Shown here: piece after piece, positions 1 through 61,254 of the stretch
Layout: the number at the start of each line of letters is the position of its first letter
How positions within the stretch are numbered: position 1 is the first letter of the stretch
DNA from: Eledone cirrhosa
Taxonomy: Eukaryota
Assembly: GCA_964016885.1 (NCBI GenBank)
Contig: OZ024751.1
Span: 33,356,001-33,420,000 of the forward strand
DNA length: 64,000 bases
Direction of reading: 5' to 3'
Notes under the pieces: model-generated
Databases searched by the model: none
The model's input: the letters and a program-made list of their open reading frames with translations, nothing else
What the model was told of the DNA's origin: nothing
Translations under genes and position numbers: made by a program

Positions 1-127
1 CACACTCGCACAAGCATACACATGCGGGAGCATCATTTCTTCAGACTTCAGTCGAATGAATCAAGATGAAATAGTAGAGGAACCCCGGCTACTGAACTCG
101 AAATAATTTATCGAAATACAAGGTTTT

Positions 128-306
128 TGTATTTGTTTAGGAAGATACTTGATGTGAAATCGTGTGCTGAAACAGATATTGTTATATTTTGAGGCTAGTC
201 ATTTTGTCAATAAAAGCACACGCACTAATCTATTTTCACTTCAGCTTTATTATTAGTTATTTCATCAAATCTCTTTCGTCACACATTCTGTGACCTTCTC
301 AATGAC
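128..306 (-). mobile_element. pLTR-like terminal fragment; related pieces at 31771-31852 and 53709-53735
   Basis: Shared TGAAATCGTGT..GAAACA.ATATTGTTATA sequence. The minus strand has TTGAGAAG-GTCAC-loop-GTGAC-GAAA followed by AATAAA. Confidence 0.5.
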
Positions 307-501
307 ATTTGTTCTTCTTCTCTCTCCCTCCTCTTCTTTTGGGCCTTAATTCTGAATAGCAATATGAATTAAACGGGGTAAGATCAAAAATATAGCCATT
401 ACACTAATGCGGCCTGACCGACCTTCCTCGTTAGAAGACTTACCCCTTGACTAGAACTGTAAAAAAGGTTCGATAAGTTTACGAAGAAATTGATCAATTA
501 T

Positions 502-619
502 GAAGGTTGAAAGGCAAAGCTAACTTCGGCGGGATTTGAACTCTAAACCTAAAAGGATGTAACTTTATGCCGCAAAGCATACTGTCTGACTCTCTACCTT
601 TACTGCTAACCTACCACCC
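502..619 (-). mobile_element. SINE family A, old partial copy
   Basis: GAAAGGCAAAGCTAACTTCGGCGGGATTTGAACTC. Confidence 0.75.
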
Positions 620-1855
620 TGTCTTTTCTAGAAAACTTTAAATTAATCGATATTTATATGCAAAATATTATTAAAACATACGCAAAATAAATTGTGATTA
701 CTAAGGTCAAAATACCAATTCACATGACTAAAATATTTGGCGACTAAAACTTTCGGAAACACTTTTATTCCTCTTTAGTGAGAATATTGTAGTAGAATAA
801 TAAATAAATGAGAGTTAGTGTTAATTTTTGTCTAATTAATAACGTCAGGTGTGAATAATATTCGCTTCACGTAGACATGTTCGTATGAAATATTTAATTA
901 GTTTCCTAATTAACCCGTATAAATAATCGTTATTTTTGTTGTCGTAAAAAATTTTAATTAATTTTCGTAAAGTTGTAGTGTGAAGTGCTCTGCACATATT
1001 TGAATATCTTAATATAATTAAAGTAATATGAAGTAGTAACAGCAACTGCAACCAACATATTCAAAGATTGACCTCGATTTACGAAAGTTTAACGATAAAA
1101 AATAAAAAAATCGAACAAGACTAATCCAATGTAAGTGTATACATACTGTGCTGTATTCTACTGACCGAGCACAATTAATTTTAGAATTAATATAGAAAAT
1201 ATATTGGTGTTGGGGTTATGCTGTAAGGCATAGAAAAAGTTTTTGATTGTACAATTTTTTCTTTAAAAAAATAACAGTTACAGACACCTATTATGATTCA
1301 AATTTCTATGGTACATTCCGTATAATCTTTTCTCCAACTTTGTTCAATAAGACGTTGTTCCATTAGATGAAAAGATATAAAAAGAACGTTGACTACCTTT
1401 GTTAAAAATAATGTTTCTCAGTAGAAAGTTGAAAAATATGCACATACATTGAGAAAGTGAATAACGTGATAAAAGATCATAAAGATAAGCTGGGAATATA
1501 AAAATGGAAACGACTCTGTGGAGTTATATTTCATAAAGGTGAGACTATATCTATATACACTATATCTATATCTTAATCTGTATACATATATATGTGTGTG
1601 TGTGTGTGTGTATGTGTGTACATACACTATATATATGTGTATGTGTATACATACACTATATATATATATATATATATATATAACTTACATAAATTACTTC
1701 TTTCATTCGGTCATTCGGAACGAAACTGAATGAATTATGTTTTAGTGAGTTTTAGTACCGGGTGACTATATTAGATAGAATACTCATACTCCACACCCGG
1801 TATTGAATACTCTTTCTTATACTCCTTATCATTACCGTCTCTCTCTCTCTCTCAA

Positions 1856-1911
<56 letters not shown>

Positions 1912-2601
1912 TCTCAAACCCCATCCACTTTCAGAATTCACGATACCATGGTCATTCATGATGGTCTTGACCATGCTTTTGGAAAAACTGTTAACCATCT
2001 CATGAAGCCCTTCTCAGATACGTGTTTGTCTGAGAAACTTTGTGTGTTTCTGGTATAGTATATAGACCAGAAGACTTTAATTGTAACATATCTGTGTATG
2101 AAAATATCAAATATGAAGTAAAACAATGTCATAAAACATTGCAGTGTTACAATATTACCAGAACTGTGTAAATACTAGAGTAGGAAGAATGGTAAGGATT
2201 GTAGGAATAATATAGAGAGCTTGAGGATCTTCAAAGGAAAATACGAGAATAGCTTCCAAAGAATAGAAATAATTCAGGAAATGAAAGACCGAAATTAGAT
2301 AGAAAGGAAATTGTAAATGTGGCTAAATCTTTTTCGCTAGAAAAAAGAACGACGCCATGATATAAAATTGAAACTAAAAGACGGATCTTTTCAACGAACG
2401 GATGAGAGATAGGAATCCTGATAGTTTCCATGTAAATACAACAGAATCATAACTAGGAATATGTAAGTTGAATAGGAGAACGAATGCTGGGAATGTGATA
2501 AGCTAATAGGGAAAGGTAGCAAACATAAGGATTATCAATGTTATACTACCTCAGGAATATTCCCGTAAAAAACCTGTGGAATGGAGGAAAGTAAAATCGG
2601 T

Positions 2602-2860
2602 GGAGTCCGACATCCACATTGAACGGTTTCGATTTAGCACAATTTATCCGAACATCAATATTAGAGCATTCGTATAGAGACATCAGGGCAAAAAGAATGT
2701 AGCCATCGATCCCTGCAGAACCTTCCACAGAACGTCTCGTGGAATGTGATCGGATACCTTTGAGTTCTACGAAGCAACCAGTCCTCCTACAATTTCTCAA
2801 AAAACTGCCGCAGTGTGCATATTTGGTCTGTTGTGTTCTACCACCTTTGGATATAAAGTT
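2602..2860 (-). pseudogene. Decayed non-LTR retrotransposon RT fragment, RTE-clade-like
   Basis: Frameshifted peptides DQICTLRQFFEK / CFVELK / DHIPRDVLWKVLQ / GIDGYILFALMSLYECSNIDVRINCAKSKPFNVDVGL resemble the LINE RT region from TDQIFTL through FVDLEKAYDRVPR to just before GLRQG. Confidence 0.8.
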
Positions 2861-3993
2861 TACGAAATTCACTACATCACTACATGACAGAGAGAGAGAG
2901 GAGAGTAAAAGAGTTGTGTTTGGATGTGTACGCGTATGTATATATGTAGAGTAATATTCTGTAATGCGGCCTAAATGCATCATCAGTAAATATGTAAGAA
3001 AGTTTTAGTTAAATACAAACATTTAGCCGACAATTTTTATCTAAAACATGATTGACTAAAGGAAAATAATGTATTAAGAAGAACAAAAATGTCTTTACAA
3101 TAACAACAACCACCATATAGATGGATATTATCAGTTTAGTCTTTCAAAGGAAAACTTAAAACAGAGATCTGTGTAGTAAGTTGAAGAAAGCAGCTGTCTA
3201 CTCGTGGTGAAGGTATCATTAACACATCTTTTGTTAGATAAAAGAAACATTCCTTGGAAATTAAATCAATTTATTTCCTGCTTTCTAACATCTCTTGCAG
3301 CAAAGACACCGTTCTTAATGAATTCATAAGTATTCTTGATAAAAATAAAGGGAGATCTCTGCAGTATGTTTGATCTGTTCGCAATTCAGCAGAGATATAC
3401 GACGGTTTAGCTCTGCCTATTAGGAAGATCAACTATCAAAGATATTTTACTTTAGCATTGAAGCTATACTTGACCTCTATATTCAGATGAGTCTTTCTCA
3501 CAAGAAAGTATTTGGCATTTAGATCGGAACATTGCTTCGAATAATTGAAGCTATAATACTCATGTGGAAATCATCCTTGTTATTATTTTCTCCCCACTTT
3601 AGTACAACATTCATGCCAAGAGTTGGTAGAAATTTTATTTGTAAAGGGTTATGTACCGACAGGATTGGATAATGTCGATTAACTGATTCAGATTCAGAAA
3701 ACTGCTGAATTGTAATAAGTTATTTCATGCCGAATATATAGACAAATATATGAGATATGCCTCAAAAGTAAATACAGCGCAATTCTATGAAATATTATTT
3801 CGCTTATTTCATATTAATCAATATACTTACACCAGGGATATTTTATTACGTTTGACATGCCCTAAGCCAATATTGGCATATATATATATATATATATATA
3901 TATACATTACATATATGTGTGAGTGAGTGAGTGAGTGTGCATGCATGTGTATGTTTATACAACTATATATGTATGTGTATATATGTGAATTTG

Positions 3994-4038
<45 letters not shown>

Positions 4039-5329
4039 ATATATGTATATGTGTATGTGTGTGTATTGAAGTACCTAGTATTGTTCACTTTTAATTAACT
4101 TCTAGAACGACATGACTTCTATATTTTGAAAGATATTTTTAGAAATATTTCCTCGCACGAAGAACTGATTTTAACTTTGTGTGAAATAATACCATTAAAA
4201 GCTTGTTACATTGAAATTAATTACTTGTAAAGAACTTCTCCGTTATTGGTTTTGCTAATTAATTTCGTTAATTAATTTGTGCAGCTTTCTATTCAGCTTT
4301 TATATGTAAACTTTAAATGTTCGTTGACAACAAATGTGGAGTATTGTAGAGCTTCCAGTGACCCACTTTAAAATATTTACTTTCACTCATTGTCTTCTCT
4401 TAACATCCTTCTAACAGCATCTTGCAAATGTTCCTCCATTTTGATTTCTATAAATAAGTACTCGTACTAAACTGATATCGATTAAATTGATTATATTATA
4501 TTCTTCCTTTACAAAACACTGGCCTAAGAAACCGATATTAAAACTTAATAGCAATTCACAAGAGGGGGAGGAAAACAAATAGCAAACATGTAGATAATAA
4601 TCAAAATATTATAATGAAAATTTGTTTTATTTGTAAGGAATGGTTAACATTTCTACAACAATTGCAATACACAAAAGTTTTAATGGTTTATTTGTAGATA
4701 AGCTTCTATTAGAGAGAATTGCTGAGGTTATCACACAATGAAAATACAAAGTTCACAACGGATCATACGCATGTAGAAGTTGATTTGCTTTCTTGTTGTG
4801 ACAAGATAAACAGTGAAATCAGAAATTATTACTTTATAGATCCCTTTAGAAATAAAAGCATCAATGAAGAAAAATCAACTGAGATTACTCCGATTTACGT
4901 TTTGTTTGTTTTTTTGGTAGTGGGCGTAGGGGGGGGGGGGGTTATTTCAAATTATTGTAGATGATAAATAGACAACGGGTGTTTGTATTGCTCATAAATT
5001 GTATATAAAGTTCAGAAGGAGAAGTGAAATAAATGGTAATTGCTTATTGATTTCCTTGTCTGATGGGCTTTATATTTTGTTGTTTCCTTAATACAGTTCG
5101 TAATTCCTTTTACTCGTTTCATTCATTCCATCGTAAAATCTTTCGATTATGTGTTGCAAGTCCGCCGCCATGTTGCAAACAAGAGAATGTTCTACAAGTA
5201 GAAACGATGATTCTGTTTCAATCTCCAAACTGAAGTTAATGTTTTTATTCTGCTAAATTCGAGAGGGAAGGGTATGAAAACGACGCCTTCCGGTTTCACA
5301 TTACTTAAAATTATGTATAAGAACTTTAA

Positions 5330-8300
5330 CAGCACATATTTCACATAGCTACATCAACAACACATATTTCACATAGCTACATCAACAACACATATTTCAA
5401 ATAGCTACATCAACAACACATATTTCACATAGCTACATCAACAACGCATATTTCACATAGCTACATCAACAACACATATTTCAAATAGCTACATCAACAA
5501 CACATATTTCACATAGCTACATCAACAACGCATATTTTACATAGCAACATTAACAACACATATTTCACATAGCAACATTAACAGCACATATTTTACATAG
5601 CAACATCAACAACACATTTCACATAGCAACATTAACAACACATATTTTACATAGCAACATCAACAACACATTTCACATAGCCACATCAACAACACATTTC
5701 ACATAGCAACATTAACAACACATATTTTACATAGCAACATCAACAACACATTTCACATAGCAACGTTAACAACACACAGTACAGATAGCAACGTTAGTAT
5801 CAGACATTACACATAACAACATTAGCAATAAACATTACACAGAAACATTAGTAACTCACATTACACATAACAACATTAGTAACTCACATTACACATAGCA
5901 ACATTAGTAACTCACATTACACATAGCAACATTAGTAACTCACATTACACGTAACAACATTAGTAACTCACATTACACATAACAACATTAGTAACTCACA
6001 TTACACATAGCAACATTAGTAACTCACATTACACATAACAACATTAGTAACCCACATTACACATAACAACATTAGTAACTCACATTACACATAACAACAT
6101 TAGTAACTCACATTACACATAACAACATTAGTAACTCACATTACACATAACAACATTAGTAACTCATATTACACATAACAACATTAGTAACTCACATTAC
6201 ACATAACAACATAAGTAACTCACATTACACATAACAACATTAGCAACTCACATTACACATAACAACATTAGTAACTCACATTATACATAACAACATTAGT
6301 AACTCACATTACACATAACAACATTAGTAACTCACATTACACATAGCAACATTAGTAACTCACATTACACATAGCAACATTAGTAACTCACATTACACAT
6401 AACAACATTAGTAACTCATATTACACATAACAACATTAGTAACTCACATTACACATAACAACATAAGTAACTCACATTACACATAACAACATTAGCAACT
6501 CACATTACACATAACAACATTAGCAACTCACATTACACATATCAACATTAGTAACTCACATAACATTAGTAACTCACATAACAACATTAGTAACTCACAT
6601 TACACATAACAACATTAGCAACTCACATTACACATAACAACATTAGTAACTCACATTACACATAACAACATTAGTAACTCACATTACACATAACAACATT
6701 AGTAACTCACATTACACATAACAACATTAGTAACTCACGTTACACATAACAACATTAGTAACTCACATTACACATAACAACATTAGTAACTCACATTACA
6801 CATAACAACATTAGTAACTCACATTACACATAGCAACATTAGTAACTCACATTACACATAACAACATTAGTAACTCACATTACACATAACAACATTAGTA
6901 ACTCACATTACACATAACAACATTAGTAACTCACATTACACATAACAACATTAGTAACTCACATTACACATAGCAACATTAGTAACTCACATTACACATA
7001 ACAACATTAGTAACTCATATTACACATAGGAACATTAGTAACTCACATTACACATAACAACATTAGTAACTCACATTACACATAACAACATTAGTAACTC
7101 ACATTACACATAGCAACATTAGTAACTCACATTACACATAGCAACATTAGTAACTCACATTACACATAGCAACATTAGTAACTCACATTACATATAACAA
7201 CATTAGTAACTCACATTACACATAACAACATTAGTAACTCACATTACACATAGCAACATTAGTAACTCACATTACACATAACAACATTAGTAACTCACAT
7301 TACACATAGCAACATTAGTAACTCACATTACACATAGCAACATTAGTAACTCACATTACATATAACAACATTAGTAACTCACATTACACATAACAACATT
7401 AGTAACTCATATTACACATAACAACATTAGTAACTCACATAACAACATTACTAACTCACATAACAACATTAGTAACTCACATTACACATAACAACATTAG
7501 TAACTCACATAACAACATTAGTAACTCAGATAACAACATTAGTAACTCACATTACACATAACAACATTAGCAACTCACATTACACATAACAACATTAGTA
7601 ACTCAAATTACACATAACAACATTAGTAACTCACATTACACATAACAACATTAGCAACTCACATTACACATAACAACATTAGTAACTCACATTACACATA
7701 ACAACATTAGTAACTCACATTACACATAACAACATTAGCAACTCACATTACACATAACAACATTAGTAACTCACATTACACATAACAACATTAGTAACTC
7801 ACATTACACATAACAAGATTAGTAACTCACATTACACATAACAACATTAGTAACTCACATTACACATAACAACATTAGTAACTCATATTACACATAACAA
7901 CATTAGTAACTCACATTACACATAACAACATTAGTAACTCACATTACACATAACAACATTAGTAACTCACATTACACATAACAACATTAGTAACTCACAT
8001 TACACATAACAACATTAGTAACTCACATTACACATAACAACATTAGTAACTCACATTACACATAACAACATTAGTAACTCACATTACACATAACAACATT
8101 AGTAACTCACATTACACATAGCAACATTAGTAACTCACATTACACATAACAACATTAGTAACTCACATTACACATAACAACATTAGTAACTCACATTACA
8201 CATAACAACATTAGTAACTCACATTACACATAACAACATTAGTAACTCACATTACACATAACAACATTAGTAACTCACATTACACATAGCAACATTAGTA

Positions 8301-12875: not shown

Positions 12876-13031
12876 TTATTATTAATGTTTCTCACACCAC
12901 CCAACCTCCATCCCTCTTATACGTTAACCTCTCAGAAACCCGTATATACATTGCCATGGTTACGTGCTGTTTTTTCTCATCTTCACGTCGATGTATATTT
13001 ACACTTATTTCTATAAATTTATCATCTATTA

Positions 13032-13219
13032 TGGTGGATTGGCAGTATCGGTAGAGGATCAGACGCCATGCTTTGACGCATAGAGTTACGGCCCTTGCCA
13101 TTCTGAGTTCAAATCCCGTCGATGTCAACTTTGCCTTTCATCCTAACGGGGGTCGATAAATAAAGTACCAGTAATACACTGGGTATTTGCTGGCCTTGTG
13201 CCTAAAGTAGAAACAATTA
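13032..13219 (+). mobile_element. tRNA-derived SINE family A
   Basis: A-box-like TGGCAGTATCGG, B-box GAGTTCAAATCC, central TTTGCCTTTCATCC..GGGGTCGATAAA, end AAAGTAGAAACAATTA. Confidence 0.9.
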
Positions 13220-13585
13220 TATCTACACAAAATTTACTTGGTTTAGATTTTAGACTGTCTTATGGGGAATACATTGTAATGTTTGGTGAAACGAGCAGTG
13301 GAACACCGTTTGTTATGGAACACTGCTGTTCCCCCTGAAGAACGTGCTTTTACTTATTTAGCCCTAGGCCAGTACTGACCGAGCAGTCTTGTGTTTCAGA
13401 TCATTCCGTCTTTTTACAGTTCAGTTTATCCTGGGTCAGTTTACCCCGTGACACATTATCTAATTAACTCATCTTTTGGTGGGTATTTTTTTCTTGGGGG
13501 GGAGGGAGCGATATTTTTTATTTCCAGAACGTCTAGTGACGGCGGAGACATACCCCCACATGGCCCAGATAGCCAGTGTAGACTA

Positions 13586-17025: not shown

Positions 17026-17215
17026 GGCGGTGGATTGGCAGTATCGGTAGAGGGTCGGATGCCATGCTTTGAAGCATAGAGTTACCTCCCTGTATGATCT
17101 GAGTTCAAATCCCGCCGAGGTTAACTTTGCCTTTCATCCTTCCGGGGTCGATAGAATAAAGTACCAGTAATGCACTGGGTAATTGCTGGCCTTGTGCCAA
17201 AAGTAGAAACAATTA
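17026..17215 (+). mobile_element. SINE family A with 18-bp TSD
   Basis: TSD ATTATTTAACTGAGATAA at 17005-17022 and 17212-17229. Confidence 0.92.
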
Positions 17216-17363
17216 TTTAACTGAGATAAAATGCTATCTCAAAAATCATATGTACATGTTGAAACGTAAGTGCAGTTTTCCAGTTTTGCAGTTTTCGATC
17301 ACAATTTTTATTAGATCTCAGCCTGTTCATTTATAATGTTCTTCATCCTTTATATGTAAGAAG

Positions 17364-20993: not shown

Positions 20994-21182
20994 GGGCGGT
21001 GGATTGGCAGTATCGGTAGAGGGTCGGACGCCATGCTTTACAGCATAGTTACGTCCCTTTACAATCTGAGTTCAAATCCCGCCGAGGTTGACTTTGCCTT
21101 TCATCCTTACGGGGTCGATAAAATAAAGTACCAGTAATGCACTGGGTAATTGCTGGCCTTGTGCCTAAAGTAGAAACAATTA
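20994..21182 (+). mobile_element. SINE family A with 18-bp TSD
   Basis: TSD ATTATTATACCTCTCTCT at 20976-20993 and 21179-21196. Confidence 0.92.
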
Positions 21183-21360
21183 TTATACCTCTCTCTTTCT
21201 CTCTCTCTCTTTCTTTCTCTCTCTCCCTCTCTCTTTCTCTCGCTCTCCCTCTCTCTCATATATAAGTTCATATATATATATACACACACACATATACATA
21301 TATACTTATAATTATACATATTAATGCGCGTACTCATACACGCACAACCACAAAAAGACC

Positions 21361-30458: not shown

Positions 30459-30459
<1 letters not shown>

Positions 30460-31247
30460 GATCCCTATCCCTACTGGACTTCCAACTCAGGGTAACAGAG
30501 GAAGGCAACATCCACACCTGCTTCTATAAAAAAGTCGCCAGCAGGGACCTGTTCGTACATTTCAGATCGGCCCTCCCAGCCGCCGCTAAGTTCGGATACA
30601 TAAGGAACGAACTAAGACGTATCCGGAACAAATGTACCGACGCTAGAGATCGAGACATACACACCACACATTTCCTGGAAGTACTCAAACTGAACGGATA
30701 CACATCCACCACAAACCGTGCCAGAAAGAACAGAAGACACCACACCCGAGGCACTAACACTTGCTTCCTGAAGCTCCCACACTTCAGTGACGAAACAACA
30801 ACAGCCATCCGCAGAGCTATCAAACGAGAGGGACTAGATATCCAACTGGCCCACTCAGGTCCTTCTCTACGCGGACAGCTAACCAAAAGACACTCCACCA
30901 GACATGACAACTGCTGCAGGCTAGCCAACTGCCCCATCAACTACACAGACCTATGCCACCAGGCTTACGTCGTATACAGACTAGAGTGTGACAAATGCAG
31001 CAACTTCTACGTAGGTAGCACCACCAGACCACTCCACATAAGAATAAAAGAACACCTCAATACTAACGCTTCCTCATTTAAGAAACACCTAGTTAAATGC
31101 AAAAACACCGACAAAACCATAACAGTTAGGATAGAAACTAAAGAAAGAAACCTCGGCAATCTTAGAATTAAGGAAGCACTAATTATAGACAAAACACAAC
31201 CACCAATCAATAATAGACTAGAAATCAACACCCAATTTATAACTTGA
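30459..31247 (+). mobile_element. Penelope-like retroelement ORF, 5'-truncated: RT C-terminus/thumb, Cys-rich linker and GIY-YIG endonuclease (262 codons plus TGA)
   Basis: Manual translation is stop-free: GSLSLLDFQLRV...LKLNGY...CCRLANCPINYTDLC...VVYRLECDKCSNFYVGSTTRPLHIRIKEH...IKEALIIDKTQPPINNR. It shows LD (RT motif 7-like), the NGY thumb motif, VVY-x9-FYVG (GIY-YIG), the R..EH motif, and the distal E and P.IN motifs. It begins abruptly after (TA)n with no start codon, which is why the ORF track missed it. Confidence 0.93.
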
Positions 31248-38949: not shown

Positions 38950-39124
38950 GTATATATATATATATATATATAATATATATAATATATATGTATGTGGAAA
39001 GTTATATTTAAATTGTTGGGTTACAACTAGTAAATATTTATAACTGATATAAAAGCACTCGACAAGTATTTGGAGTATATTTACGATATTAAATAAATGG
39101 AAACTATATTTATAAAACCATATT

Positions 39125-39190
39125 TATTTCATTATATATATTTCAGGGATATCATATTAACAATATGCTATGCCTTCCTCAGACAAAATA
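39125..39190 (-). ncRNA. Minimal type I hammerhead motif (mirror copy in the left palindrome arm)
   Basis: Reverse complement of 39351-39416. Confidence 0.75.
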
Positions 39191-39350
39191 CAATATAGAC
39201 AGTTTTATAGATAAATAGATTTGACATACCGTTCAACATCGACTTGTATTTGAAAAGTTGATTTGGCAGATCTGCCAAATCAACTTTTCAAATACAAGTC
39301 GATGTTGAACGGTATGTCAAATCTATTTATCTATAAAACTGTTTATATTG

Positions 39351-39416
39351 TATTTTGTCTGAGGAAGGCATAGCATATTGTTAATATGATATCCCTGAAA
39401 TATATATAATGAAATA
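39351..39416 (+). ncRNA. Minimal type I hammerhead ribozyme motif
   Basis: Stem I TATTTTGT/ATGAAATA; core CTGAGGA; stem II AGG-C-ATAGCATATT-gtt-AATATGATAT-C-CCT; GAAA; palindromic TATATA; AUA triplet. Confidence 0.75.
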
Positions 39417-39459
39417 AATATGGTTTTATAAATATAGTTTCCATTTATTTAATATCGTA

Positions 39460-47476: not shown

Positions 47477-51010
<3,534 letters not shown>

Positions 51011-51038
51011 TATGATATTAACAAATGGAAACTATATA

Positions 51039-51103
51039 TATTTCATTATACATATTTCAAGGACACCAAGTTAAATTATGGTGTGCTTTCATCAGATAAA
51101 ATA
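51039..51103 (-). ncRNA. Type I hammerhead motif (mirror copy)
   Basis: Reverse complement of 51235-51299. Confidence 0.8.
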
Positions 51104-51234
51104 TAATATAGATCAGTTTTATAAATAAATATTGACATACCCTTAAAAAATGCAACCATTGTTGTTGGAAGCCCAACAATGGTTGCATTTTTTAAGGGTA
51201 TGTCAATATTTATTTATAAAACTGATCTATATTA

Positions 51235-51299
51235 TATTTTATCTGATGAAAGCACACCATAATTTAACTTGGTGTCCTTGAAATATGTATAATGAAATA
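51235..51299 (+). ncRNA. Type I hammerhead ribozyme motif with canonical CUGAUGA core
   Basis: Stem I TATTTTAT/ATGAAATA; CTGATGA (51243-51249); stem II AAG-C-ACACCA-loop-TGGTGT-C-CTT; GAAA (51280-51283); TATGTA; AUA triplet. Confidence 0.8.
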
Positions 51300-51487
51300 A
51301 ATATAGTTTTATAAATATAGTTTCCATTTGTTAATATCGTATTTTTACTCCAAATATTTGTTGAGTGCTTTATATCAGTTATAAAACTATTTGCTTGTTG
51401 TATCCCAACAATTTAAATAGAACTTCTACATATATATGCTTTGTTTTTTATTCCATTACACAATTTATAACATTATATAACATATAT

Positions 51488-51656
51488 ATTGGCAGGGTCG
51501 GGCGCCATGCTTTGACGCATAGTTACGGCCCTTGCCATTCTGAGTTCAAACCCCGCCGAGGTTAACTTTGCCTTTCATCCTTACGGGGTCGATAAAATAA
51601 AGTACCAGTAATGTACTGGGTAATTGCTGGCCTTGTGCCAAAAGTAGAAACAATTA
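51488..51656 (+). mobile_element. SINE family A, 5'-deleted
   Basis: Same B-box, core and tail as the other copies. Confidence 0.88.
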
Positions 51657-52150
51657 TATCAATTTATATTGCTCTAAAGCAGTAGTTTTTGAAATGTTGG
51701 CTCATCACCAATTACTGGATTACAAAATAAATTTAAATAAATAAAATAGGCCGTGATATTTTGAAACAATATGCAAATATCTTTTGTGGGACAGAGTAAA
51801 AAAGTATTTTCAATGCTGTTCTTAGCTATTCGTTTATTAAGCAAAGGAAAATATATTCTTGTCGTATTTTGAAAAATATTTATAATTCATAGCCCCAAAG
51901 ATAGACTTTACGTATTTATCTAGATACAAGTTGTTGTGGATTATCTCAGTATACAGAGAATAGATTTGGATTCATCATAAAATATCAACTTAAAATTTAT
52001 ACCTTTGTCACGCGGATATATATAACTTATTCCCTCTTATATATCTTACATTGTGCTTCTAATTGATATGTATAACTTCTTCGTTCTCATATATCTTATA
52101 CTCTCTAGTTGATATATATATATATAGCTTATTCGTACTCATATCTTATA

Positions 52151-53783: not shown

Positions 53784-55081
53784 TTATATACATATATATA
53801 TATATATAATATATATTATATATATATATATAATATATATATTATATACATATATATATATAATATATATTATATACATATATATAATATATATTATATA
53901 TAATATATATTATATATATATATATAATATATATATTATATATATATAATATATATATATAATATATATTATATATATATATAATATATATTATATATAT
54001 ATATATAATATATATTATATAATATATATTATATATATATATAATATATATTATATATATATTATATATATATTATATACATATATATTATATATATATA
54101 TATAATATATATTATATATATATATATATATAATATATATTATATATATATATATATATAATATATATTATATATATATATATAATATATATTATATACA
54201 TATATATTATATATATATATAATATATATTATATACATATATATTATATATATATATAATATATATTATATACATATATATTATATATATATATATAATA
54301 TATATTATATACATATATATTATATATATATATATAATATATATTATATACATATATATTATATATATATATATAATTGTTTCTACTTTAGGCACAAGGC
54401 CAGCAATTACCCAGTGCATTACTGGTACTTTTATTTTATCGACCCCGTAAGGATGAAAGGCAAAGTCAACCTCGGCGGGATTTGAACTCAGATCGTAAAG
54501 GTACGTAACTATGCTGGAAAGCATGGCGTCCGACCCTCTACCGATACTGCCAATCCACCACCCTTTATATATAATATATATTATATACATATATATTATA
54601 TATATATAATATATATTATATACATATATATTATAAATGTATTTATATTATATACATATATATTATATATGTATATATATTATATACATATATTATATAC
54701 ATATATATTATATATGTATATATATTATACGTATATATATTATATACATATATATTATATAAATATATATTATATATGTATAGATATATTATATACATAT
54801 ATATTATATAAATATATATTATATATGTATATATATATATATTATATATGTATATATATATATATTATATATGTATATTTATATATATACATATATATAT
54901 ATATTATATACATATATATTATATATATATTATATACATATATATTATATATATATTATATACATATATATATTATATACATATATATTATATATATATT
55001 ATATACATATATATTATATATAGATATATATTATATATGTATATATATTACATACATATATATTGTATATATATATATATG

Positions 55082-56185: not shown

Positions 56186-56224
<39 letters not shown>

Positions 56225-56366
56225 TTTGAGTATATGTTGGTTGTTTACCGACACCTCAGTATGCAGATTGGAGCACTCGACGAAGTACGCAGGTTGGTTT
56301 GGTTACTCCGGAGTAATGTAAAGTAAAACAAATAAGTCAAATGTTTAAAATTTGGCTTCGTTTATT

Positions 56367-56421
56367 ACTGCTATATATATTTCGGTGACAGCCATCTTTG
56401 GCCGTGACCTCTTCAGACAGT
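56367..56421 (-). ncRNA. Type I hammerhead ribozyme motif in a Penelope-type terminal fragment (about 56225-56700)
   Basis: Minus strand reads ACTGT-CTGAAGA-GGT-C-ACGGCCA-aaga-TGGCTGT-C-ACC-GAAA-TATATA-TA-GCAGT, followed immediately by AATAAA. All stems pair. Confidence 0.82.
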
Positions 56422-56925
56422 CTGAATTGGTGTGGTAGAGACGGGTACACATGTTTTTGAGGTGTTTAACTGAAGTCATATGAATTCGAACAAACGAATT
56501 TCGGCGTCACAGGACACTCTCTCATCCCATTGGTCAGTTGTGAGAACATTCCTCAGTCAAAAGTCTATAGAAATTCATTCTGAGGCGAGGCAATCTGTAG
56601 TGGTTGTTTTTGTTATTGTTAAGTACATCTGACCTCTTCCCTTATGTTGGTATGGGTGTTGTTGTTGAGGTCAGCTTAAGTCCGGCTGCTCGTATTTTTA
56701 GAAGAATTTGTGTGTGTGTGTTGGCATCTATCCTGCCACCATTTCTCGTGGTGGTGGGGGGGGGGGCAAGCAGATAAAGAAATAAGATACAGTAAAATAA
56801 AAGGCAATAAAATGAAGAAAATAAAAAATAGAAAAATGAAGAGAAAATAAAATGAAATGAAAATGTAAAAGACTAAAAAAATAAGAATAAAATAAAGAAA
56901 TAAAAAAATAAAATAAGCAAATAAA

Positions 56926-57111
56926 TGTTTCTACTTTGGCACAAGGCCAGCAATACCCCAGTGTATTACTGGTACTTTATTTTATCGACACCGTAAGGAT
57001 TAAAGGCAAAGTCAACCTCAGCCGGATTTGAACTCAGAATAGCAAGTGCCGTAACTCTATGCGTCAAAGCATGGCGTCCGACCCCCTACCGACACTGCCA
57101 ATTCACCGCCC
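56926..57111 (-). mobile_element. SINE family A
   Basis: Full-length reverse-complement copy. Confidence 0.9.
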
Positions 57112-58420
57112 TAAAAAATGATAAAATAATAAAAGGAATAAGATAATAAAAGAATAAAATAAGATAATCAAATAAAATGTGTGTGTGTTATAACCAATCT
57201 CAAAGTTAGAAAGATTTGGAAGATATTGACAGAAGTAGAAAGGCTGTGTCAGAATCAATCTTTTCACTATCATGGTGTGGTGTGTTTTAACAGCAAATGA
57301 GACAAGGGTGGAGTTTAATACCCCAGAACCCGAGTGTTAAAATCCGGAATTGCAGAGGACTACAGTTCCCATTTTGGCATGGAGTTCATATGCGTGTATG
57401 TCAACTCACATCGTTCCAAGCACCCACGCACAGGCACAGGCACAGGCCCAGGTGCATCCCCTAAGCACACACAACCCCCCCCCCCCCCCACACACACACA
57501 CACACACATACACACAAACACACCCATACACACACACACATTATAAACCCACACACACACACCCACATACACACACGTACACACACCCACCCACATCCCC
57601 ACGCACACACACCCACCCGCATACACACATGTAAGTATCTGTGCATGTACAATCTTAAATAACAGTATCTATGTATGGACATATGCATAAGTATGTGTTG
57701 TCTCAGGAGTCTATCGAGACAGTGGTATGGTGGGGCTGCTGTCCTTATAACTAGAGGGAAGTTCCCATCCCACTGTTTTGCTATTGTCCATATAGCTTGA
57801 CACTTAACATGTATGTGTGACCTTAAGTTTCTGGGTCAATTTATGGCCACCCCTGTATAGTGAAGTAGCTGTTCGAAAACTGGCCTCCCTCGTCACAAGG
57901 TCAAATTTCAAGAAAAAAACTCTTACTTTACAAACCTTCCACCACAAGAGCCACCTTTTGTCAAAATCAAACGCTACACACCGAAGTGACTCCTAATCTG
58001 ATCTGCTAAATCCTCTAAGACCCTGTCATCCATACACGCAGAACTTTGACTATACCACATTAGTAAGACATTCTTGAAAAGTACAAAACAGCACAAAACA
58101 GCACTTTGACAAATGAAAGAATTTCTTTCACTTTGGTTTTTGTATTTGTTTTGCTAGATTCTTGATATAGATTTGTGTGTCTTAGTTTTCCCATCGATCT
58201 GGCCACGTGTAAAGATATTAAAAACATTTGATTAACAGACTTATTTTTAGAGAGTTTCTGCTCAATCATTAAAGAATGTTAAGAAATAAGTCATTGACTG
58301 AGAGTCTATCATTTTATTTCTTCCAGATGAAGTTTGTTAATCTCCGAGAGTTATAGATGCTGGCAAACCCTTCTTTTCACGTTTTCACATTCATTTGTTG
58401 CCACACAGACGAAGAACACA

Positions 58421-61100: not shown

Positions 61101-61254
61101 CGGTGGATTGGCAGTATCGGTAGAGGGTCGGACGCCATGCTTTCCAGCATAGTTACGTCCCTTTACGGTCTGAGTTCAAATCCCGCCGAGGTTGACTTTG
61201 CCTTTCATCCTTACGGGGTCGATAAAATAAAGTACCACTAAAGTAGAAACAATT
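61101..61254 (+). mobile_element. SINE family A with an internal deletion of about 31 nt and a 19-bp TSD
   Basis: TSD ATTAATTTGAATCAAAATT at 61078-61096 and 61252-61270. AGTACCA is joined directly to CTAAAGTAG. Confidence 0.9.

Follow-up and report, generated by a model that had tools for sequence, protein, structure and literature searches.

Introduction

In the canonical insertion unit of Penelope-like retroelements (PLEs), as set out in PMC3846280, PMC4209133 and the Fig. 2 legend of PMC8557442, a pLTR is joined head to head to an adjacent inverted pLTR through a palindromic junction, a tail is present on one side only, and dual hammerhead motifs lie on opposite strands, 100–700 bp apart and with low reported activity in vitro (PMC4209133). 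Passages in PMC3846280 and PMC8557442 describe the one-sided tail qualitatively, and the latter paper invokes EN-mediated resolution for it and calls the mechanism of tandem and inverted PLE insertion undefined. The Hydra clade, which includes Hydra-1_Obim from Octopus bimaculoides, is defined in section 11 of PMC8557442 by features that include RWK, a change from DKG to DKT, a CxCx5C linker, and CxxC and CxH around conserved E and N residues. Its members carry a canonical hammerhead and use (TA)n targets; a unit length below 3 kb is given as typical, not diagnostic, the tail measures 30–40 nt, and an inverted 5'-truncated copy was noted for Penelope-13_HM (PMC8557442).

The Poseidon element PAc of Anolis, from another PLE clade, has two internal reverse transcription (RT) starts that bound its tail, and both strands of an AT-rich target are cut and extended in vitro; the binding region lies 3' of these starts and a dimer is predicted (PMC11167929). 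The PAc starts sit inside the ORF, 30–40 nt apart, and the main text of that paper contains neither a duplicated motif nor a link to inversions. Metazoan type I hammerheads with a palindromic helix III, including those of retrozymes, have in common the core, a 2-bp stem III, a palindromic loop and predicted action as dimers (PMC4209133; PMC7229834), and the palindromic stem III is regarded as the mark of dimer-acting hammerheads (PMC4209133). The giant squid has 235 reported hammerheads (PMC6962438), and for the axolotl as many as 120,000 copies of retrozymes are reported (PMC7229834). Penelope-like insertions with recent activity have been described for O. vulgaris, in passages that mention neither Hydra nor ribozymes (PMC13282606).

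A truncated Hydra-clade insertion at 51 kb

The DNA analysed here (the window) is a stretch of 64,000 nucleotides from Eledone cirrhosa. We find that positions 51011–51430 hold a head-to-head pair of 5'-truncated pLTR copies of a Hydra-clade PLE, which reproduces the canonical layout of pLTR, adjacent inverted pLTR, one-sided tail, palindromic junction and dual opposite-strand hammerheads. Its parts are as follows.

51011–51172, minus strand: short arm, an inverted 5'-truncated pLTR copy whose short (S) terminus abuts a TA-rich microsatellite; carries a 14-nt deletion
51032–51111, minus strand: type I hammerhead motif, core start 51095, predicted cleavage 3' of 51047
51165–51174, no strand: inversion junction, in which the left arm has 8 further template bases (51165–51172), then one extra base, and the right arm begins at 51174 (by comparison with the long copy L076)
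51174–51430, plus strand: long arm, a 5'-truncated pLTR plus tail, 95.7% identical to the pLTR and 5' leader of the full-length unit L076
51227–51306, plus strand: type I hammerhead with stem I, core at 51243–51249, stem II with a C-C mismatch, GAAA at 51280, palindromic stem III and predicted cleavage 3' of 51291
51342–51430, plus strand: tail of ~89 nt, from the short terminus (~51341) to the long terminus (51430), part of the ORF 5' leader in full-length units
51347–51368, plus strand: copy 1 of a duplicated hairpin motif (RCTCY..GTYGAGYGC), 5 nt past the short terminus

The two arms are identical over 126 of 126 nt (51039–51164 versus 51174–51299), in line with the near-identity claimed for them in a preliminary description of the sequence. 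The left-arm deletion lies beyond this stretch, and the right arm extends to 51430. Copy 2 of the hairpin motif, found beyond the long terminus in read-through elements, is missing from the 51-kb insertion. A check for target-site duplication found TA repeats on both flanks, and the output of a repeat search and an Rfam scan of the whole window was dominated by TA microsatellites. Adjoining the short end is a TA-rich microsatellite of ~3.5 kb (~47500–51010) with G interruptions on one strand, and a comparable expansion lies beyond the short end of the homologous element at 39 kb. No Hydra ORF remnant was found within the window by tblastn.

Palindromes beside low-complexity DNA may be artefacts, and the 51-kb palindrome lies in just such a setting, where chimeric long reads beside the long microsatellite could have misled the assembly. 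However, the arms end at two different family-wide termini, the flanks are not mirrored, and the left arm has a deletion of its own. In contigs from public runs, moreover, these termini recur as loose ends that lead into TA repeats, and two opposite-strand joints are present. We therefore regard an assembly artefact as extremely improbable.

The preliminary description had also seen a common foldback design in this element and its 39-kb homolog. The foldback itself stands, whereas a palindrome serving the ribozyme was rejected: RNA reading through the foldback is predicted to form a single long hairpin that buries the ribozyme. A miRNA precursor was likewise rejected; an Rfam search of the element returned only hairpin-type miRNA models, all far under their cut-offs. 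What had been overlooked is that the window elements represent the ends of an autonomous Hydra-clade PLE, left after truncation. The 51-kb feature is a truncated insertion with an inverted copy and a tail, in which the foldback is an insertion by-product and the stump dead cargo, a kind already described for PLEs. The locus is in this respect ordinary, one among thousands of dead PLE stumps.

Source families and encoded protein

Exact ribozyme cores number 3,383 for the family of the 51-kb element (family B) and 1,910 for its sister at 39 kb (family A). Given those 1,910 cores, the empty result of a DNA search with the 39-kb arm is put down to filtering. The 51-kb long arm has 1,148 candidate matches, and the best reach 97–98% among the 40 scored. 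Same-strand pLTR copies ~3.8–4.1 kb apart enclose an ORF, and full-length tandem units of the form pLTR-ORF-3'UTR-pLTR were located for family A (L072, period 3,806) and family B (L076, period 4,136). Hammerhead-bearing pLTRs from partial tandem copies are present at L072, L076 and L187.

Intact ORFs of 737–742 amino acids with RT and GIY-YIG-like regions (L184, L186 and L187) occur in family A and in a close sister of B with 92% identity to it; no fully intact ORF for family B itself was seen among the loci read, the longest checked frames there having 436–456 amino acids. The protein contains RWR at residue 37, DKT at 118 and YRDD (YKDD in L187), together with CxCx5C (CNCRNKSNC, 601), a GIY-YIG-like motif, CxxC (CDLC, 699) and CxH (CRH, 726). 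Among 60 homologs, RW[KR] is present in 58 and DK[TS] in all. The GIY-YIG-like pattern VVY..YVG, with R, H, E and N, is conserved across the same 60 (motif in 48/60), in a domain that lacks a Pfam match; between its halves there is a single non-conserved C and no internal CCHH. The ORF has no match in Pfam, nor did a profile search against PDB sequences return any. A protein model built from 60 sequences has a pLDDT of 86.8, and its best fold match is TERT (E = 2.6e-10). Among 120 homologs listed, the only one named to an organism is from Argonauta hians (39%). In L184 and L186, residues ~483–512 and 588–597 form asparagine-rich, low-confidence stretches that recall the N-rich inserts described for Adineta PLEs in PMC3846280.

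The RWR, DKT, CxCx5C, CxxC and CxH motifs match the published definition of Hydra, and on these protein motifs the 51-kb feature is almost certainly the end of a Hydra-clade PLE. It shares with that clade the canonical hammerhead, the (TA)n targets and the inverted 5'-truncated copy, but differs from the members described in PMC8557442 in several respects. The units measure 3.8–4.1 kb with a long 3' UTR, outside the typical Hydra length; the tail is ~90 nt (~145 nt in one family); the copy number runs to tens of thousands; and the hammerhead is not the one listed for Hydra-1_Obim in the supplement of that paper.

Comparison with the 39-kb homolog

A second two-arm insertion in the window belongs to family A.

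38995–39459, no strand assigned to the whole: 39-kb homolog, a two-arm insertion from the sister family A; long arm 38995–39269 (minus), short arm 39272–39459 (plus)

The two elements are homologous in opposite orientation and clearly diverged, as had been proposed: BLAST gives 76.6% across 440 columns (E = 1e-81), and the long arms agree at 216 of 278 columns when aligned globally. Their centres differ, again as proposed: both 39-kb arms are truncated 87 nt upstream of the core and meet in a perfect palindrome. Each of the two foldbacks has one short and one long end.

Base-by-base comparison of the ribozymes verified the double change at the base of stem II (AGG/CCT to AAG/CTT) and the change from G-U to A-U in stem I. 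In the inner part of stem II (ATAGCA/TGATAT to ACACCA/TGGTGT), the second pair does change from T-A to C-G on both sides, but the 39-kb stem contains one G-A mismatch, so that pairing is not fully retained as the preliminary description had it. A C-C mismatch breaks stem II in both elements. The 39-kb core reads CUGAGGA, position 7 being free, and the placement of the 51-kb cleavage site at AUA, 3' of 51291, is correct.

A hammerhead fold conserved across families

Motifs in the window and in sampled copies have the CUGANGA, GAAA and UH core elements and three stems of a type I hammerhead. A check against Rfam hammerhead models, which the preliminary description had recommended, gave no match up to E = 10 for positions 51015–51450. 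The 51-kb motif folds better than shuffled sequences (z = −2.3); the 39-kb motifs fold no better than theirs (z = +0.9 and +1.1). With only the core and stem III fixed, a search pattern matched the genome 80,205 times, versus 149 in the control, and when stem III was left free the figures were 87,569 and 2,163. Hammerhead-type motifs thus number ~80,000 in a genome of 3.0 Gb, or 27 per Mb.

Pairing was assessed in the window and in 60 stretches that surround most of the 100 matches listed first; together these gave 89 motifs (72 unique) from a pattern that did not require stems I and II. Pairs 1–5 of stem I form in 90–97% of the unique motifs, and pairs 1–3, 5–7 and 9 of stem II in 85–97%, with pair 8 at 68%; in slid-register controls on the same 72 motifs pairing was mostly far lower. 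Compared with the metazoan type I hammerheads in PMC4209133 and PMC7229834, stem II is longer and carries a C-C at pair 4 (66 of 72 unique motifs), and the ribozymes sit in dispersed pLTRs rather than in short tandem repeats. Among 14 hand-picked family representatives, whose relatedness was uncontrolled, double changes occur at 15 of 17 pairs, a number reached in none of 500 shuffles, and the covariation score is 0.75, versus at most 0.17 in slid registers. The 85–97% pairing at most stem positions and the double changes support the earlier proposal that the fold was under selection in the source elements.

In a hand count of the first 100 matches listed for the pattern with stem III left free, the stem III octamer was AUAURUAU in 74, AUGAUCAU in 13, AUACGUAU in 2, AUGUGCAU in 2 and something else in 9. 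All four named octamers are self-complementary, and palindromy is kept across families. Cofolding of two ribozyme copies put another structure below the stem III dimer in energy. The duplexes of 8 nt are themselves weak, at −2.2 and −3.2 kcal/mol, and it is therefore the conserved palindrome that carries the dimer reading. From its sequence the ribozyme is predicted to cleave poorly as a monomer and to act as a dimer via the palindromic stem III.

Two termini paired as short plus long

Copies stop at two fixed places, which lie ~45 and ~135 nt beyond the cleavage site. TA or CA repeats follow these termini in nearly all of the listed copies, and the bias toward (TA)n fits Hydra. We examined 50 head-to-head pairs, chosen by position, most of them among the 100 matches listed first and located on a single contig: 43 combine a short with a long end, 3 are short-short, 3 long-long (two of which look like classifier errors by eye) and 1 was left unresolved. 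The short-plus-long arrangement, with ends ~90 nt apart, therefore accounts for 43/49 resolved pairs (p = 3e-8 against an expectation of 0.5). A distant family (L230, L231 and L233) with a tail of ~145 nt and a 50-nt loop inside motif 1 keeps the same rule. At L093, two neighbouring foldbacks stand in mirror arrangement and their short arms have a rare variant in common, likely through a later inverted duplication.

Arm variants, junctions and 5' stops

The arms of one insertion resemble each other more than those of different insertions. Arm differences come to 2.57 within versus 4.06 between insertions in family B (n = 23) and 1.17 versus 2.88 in family A (n = 12), with a permutation p of 5e-5. 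Minor sub-lineage alleles are found on both arms in 6/6 and 6/7 pair rows, while in one pair (L018) the arms are discordant for a sub-lineage marker. Gene conversion between arms could be another source of the common variants. Junction positions vary from copy to copy, and this variation together with the within-insertion similarity supports the earlier suggestion that the palindrome formed independently at each insertion.

These junctions also bear on the possibility that a non-autonomous family, either a retrozyme or a MITE-like foldback, moves as a palindromic unit. The elements are small, contain a ribozyme and occur in thousands of copies, and retrozymes are reported as PLE derivatives in bioRxiv 10.64898/2026.07.22.740005. 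Yet the junction differs at every copy, many copies are solo, and the arms measure anything between 14 nt and 3.5 kb and run on into the ORF, on which grounds a MITE was rejected; the short tandem monomers of a non-LTR retrozyme, each with a hammerhead and none with an ORF, were not found. We consider such a family very improbable.

Across 40 short/long rows, several of them unreliable in repeats, the short arm reaches further 5' in 12, the long arm in 10, and the two are equal in 18. A hand count, made from 42 rows, of clean junctions with a difference above 20 nt gave 8 with a longer short arm and 6 with a longer long arm. Either arm may thus reach further 5', which indicates that neither was simply copied from the other. 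Among truncated copies, solo or paired, 31 of 67 from family B and 8 of 23 from family A stop at −83 to −93 from the core, and the common stump size results from this shared stop. The hot spot coincides with the word YCACT, which resembles the initiator described in PMC3846280. We infer that the stop marks the RNA 5' end, consistent with the internal promoter reported in PMC2377424.

The same element could in principle have made its second arm by snap-back self-priming on one strand, its outer ends being fixed when the endonuclease resolved a hairpin intermediate and the hairpin motif acting as a DNA cutting signal. Self-priming on an antisense template has been proposed in PMC3846280, and EN-mediated resolution of the tail in PMC8557442. 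The variants common to both arms agree with such a course, as do near-symmetric junctions in 18/40 short/long pairs, some of them perfect palindromes such as the 39-kb centre; these symmetric junctions, however, lie mostly at the −88 stop, which solo copies also have. In 8 clean pairs the tail-less arm exceeds the tailed arm by 22 to 3,300 template bases, and neither arm contains the other. Unequal reach argues against simple self-priming unless central deletions followed, and such a post-insertion deletion could mimic a short arm that is longer at its 5' side. Snap-back would further make a DNA signal of a motif that resembles an RNA structure (see below). Taken together, we judge it unlikely.

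A duplicated hairpin motif behind each end

In read-through copies, RCTCY..GTYGAGYGC follows each terminus. L072, L076 (with one substitution), L184 and L149, loci that were not selected for the motif, contain both copies of it. Both also occur in the L199 family and in 14/16 matches for the family of a third element in the window, found by searches that required the 3' half of the motif, so that only its 5' half and position were free there. Among the rows scored, short ends fall 1–9 nt before motif 1 in 26/30 rows and long ends 3–8 nt before motif 2 in 18/21. The stem is formed by ACTC and GAGT in copy 1 but by GCTC and GAGC in copy 2, around loops of widely varying length, and these compensating pairs and variable loops suggest that the motif acts as an RNA structure.

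The passages on the canonical PLE unit in PMC3846280, PMC8557442 and PMC4209133 are without a duplicated motif or a 5' stop hot spot; here both are present, in addition to the count of end pairs. A statement of one priming event per motif was not found in the openly accessible literature searched, nor were the short-plus-long count, the variants common to both arms, the 5' reach of either arm, or ends placed just before a duplicated motif.

Proposed insertion mechanism

The short and long ends, the common variants, the reach of either arm and the motif before each end together favour two priming events on one source RNA. Our main reading, to which we assign a probability of about three in four, is a two-armed insertion of a hammerhead-bearing end into (TA)n, likely by two RT primings on RNA from one source; the two-priming mechanism taken by itself we hold to be probable. 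The RT-endonuclease of the element would cut both DNA strands of a (TA)n tract, and reverse transcription would be primed twice, on opposite strands, on RNA from one source copy. At each outer end RT would have started internally, at a site dictated by that end's copy of the duplicated RNA hairpin motif. The two cDNAs would then terminate independently of each other, in many cases where the RNA likely has its 5' end, 83–93 nt upstream of the core, and be joined tip to tip into a head-to-head foldback.

More tentatively, a dimeric RT-endonuclease might bind the two hairpin motifs of the leader, each subunit priming the opposite strand at its own motif, so that a complete insertion would have one short and one long end. 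This arrangement would differ from that of PAc (PMC11167929) in the position of the putative starts, which would fall within the 5' leader, ahead of the ATG. If it is correct, PLE inversions and tails share a single cause, and a sequence code made up of the two motifs, a UA patch that anneals to the target and an initiator-like 5' stop would make the mechanism of PLE integration testable. The near-rule for the ends (one short and one long, from one source, with a motif behind each) is testable in the existing in vitro system. A PLE lineage missed by both Pfam and Rfam has left ~80,000 hammerhead motifs and many long inverted repeats in this genome, the latter a possible source of double-stranded RNA.

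Other elements in the window

A third hammerhead-bearing pLTR, from a more distant Hydra family, lies on the minus strand at 56186–56574 (core 56416, long end ~56220). It is 84–94% like L219 and L222, and an inverted partner was not seen within the window. On the plus strand, a frame of 262 amino acids at 30459–31244 gives a Pfam GIY-YIG match (E = 1.8e-6) and probably represents what is left of the C-terminus of an element from another PLE clade; L036 has a comparable stretch at 4810–5671. An abundant SINE-like repeat of ~180 nt occurs at 13008–13220, 17033–17218, 21002–21184, 51494–51657, 54373–54555, 56918–57162 and 61106–61241, the copy at 51494–51657 lying 60 nt to the right of the 51-kb element.
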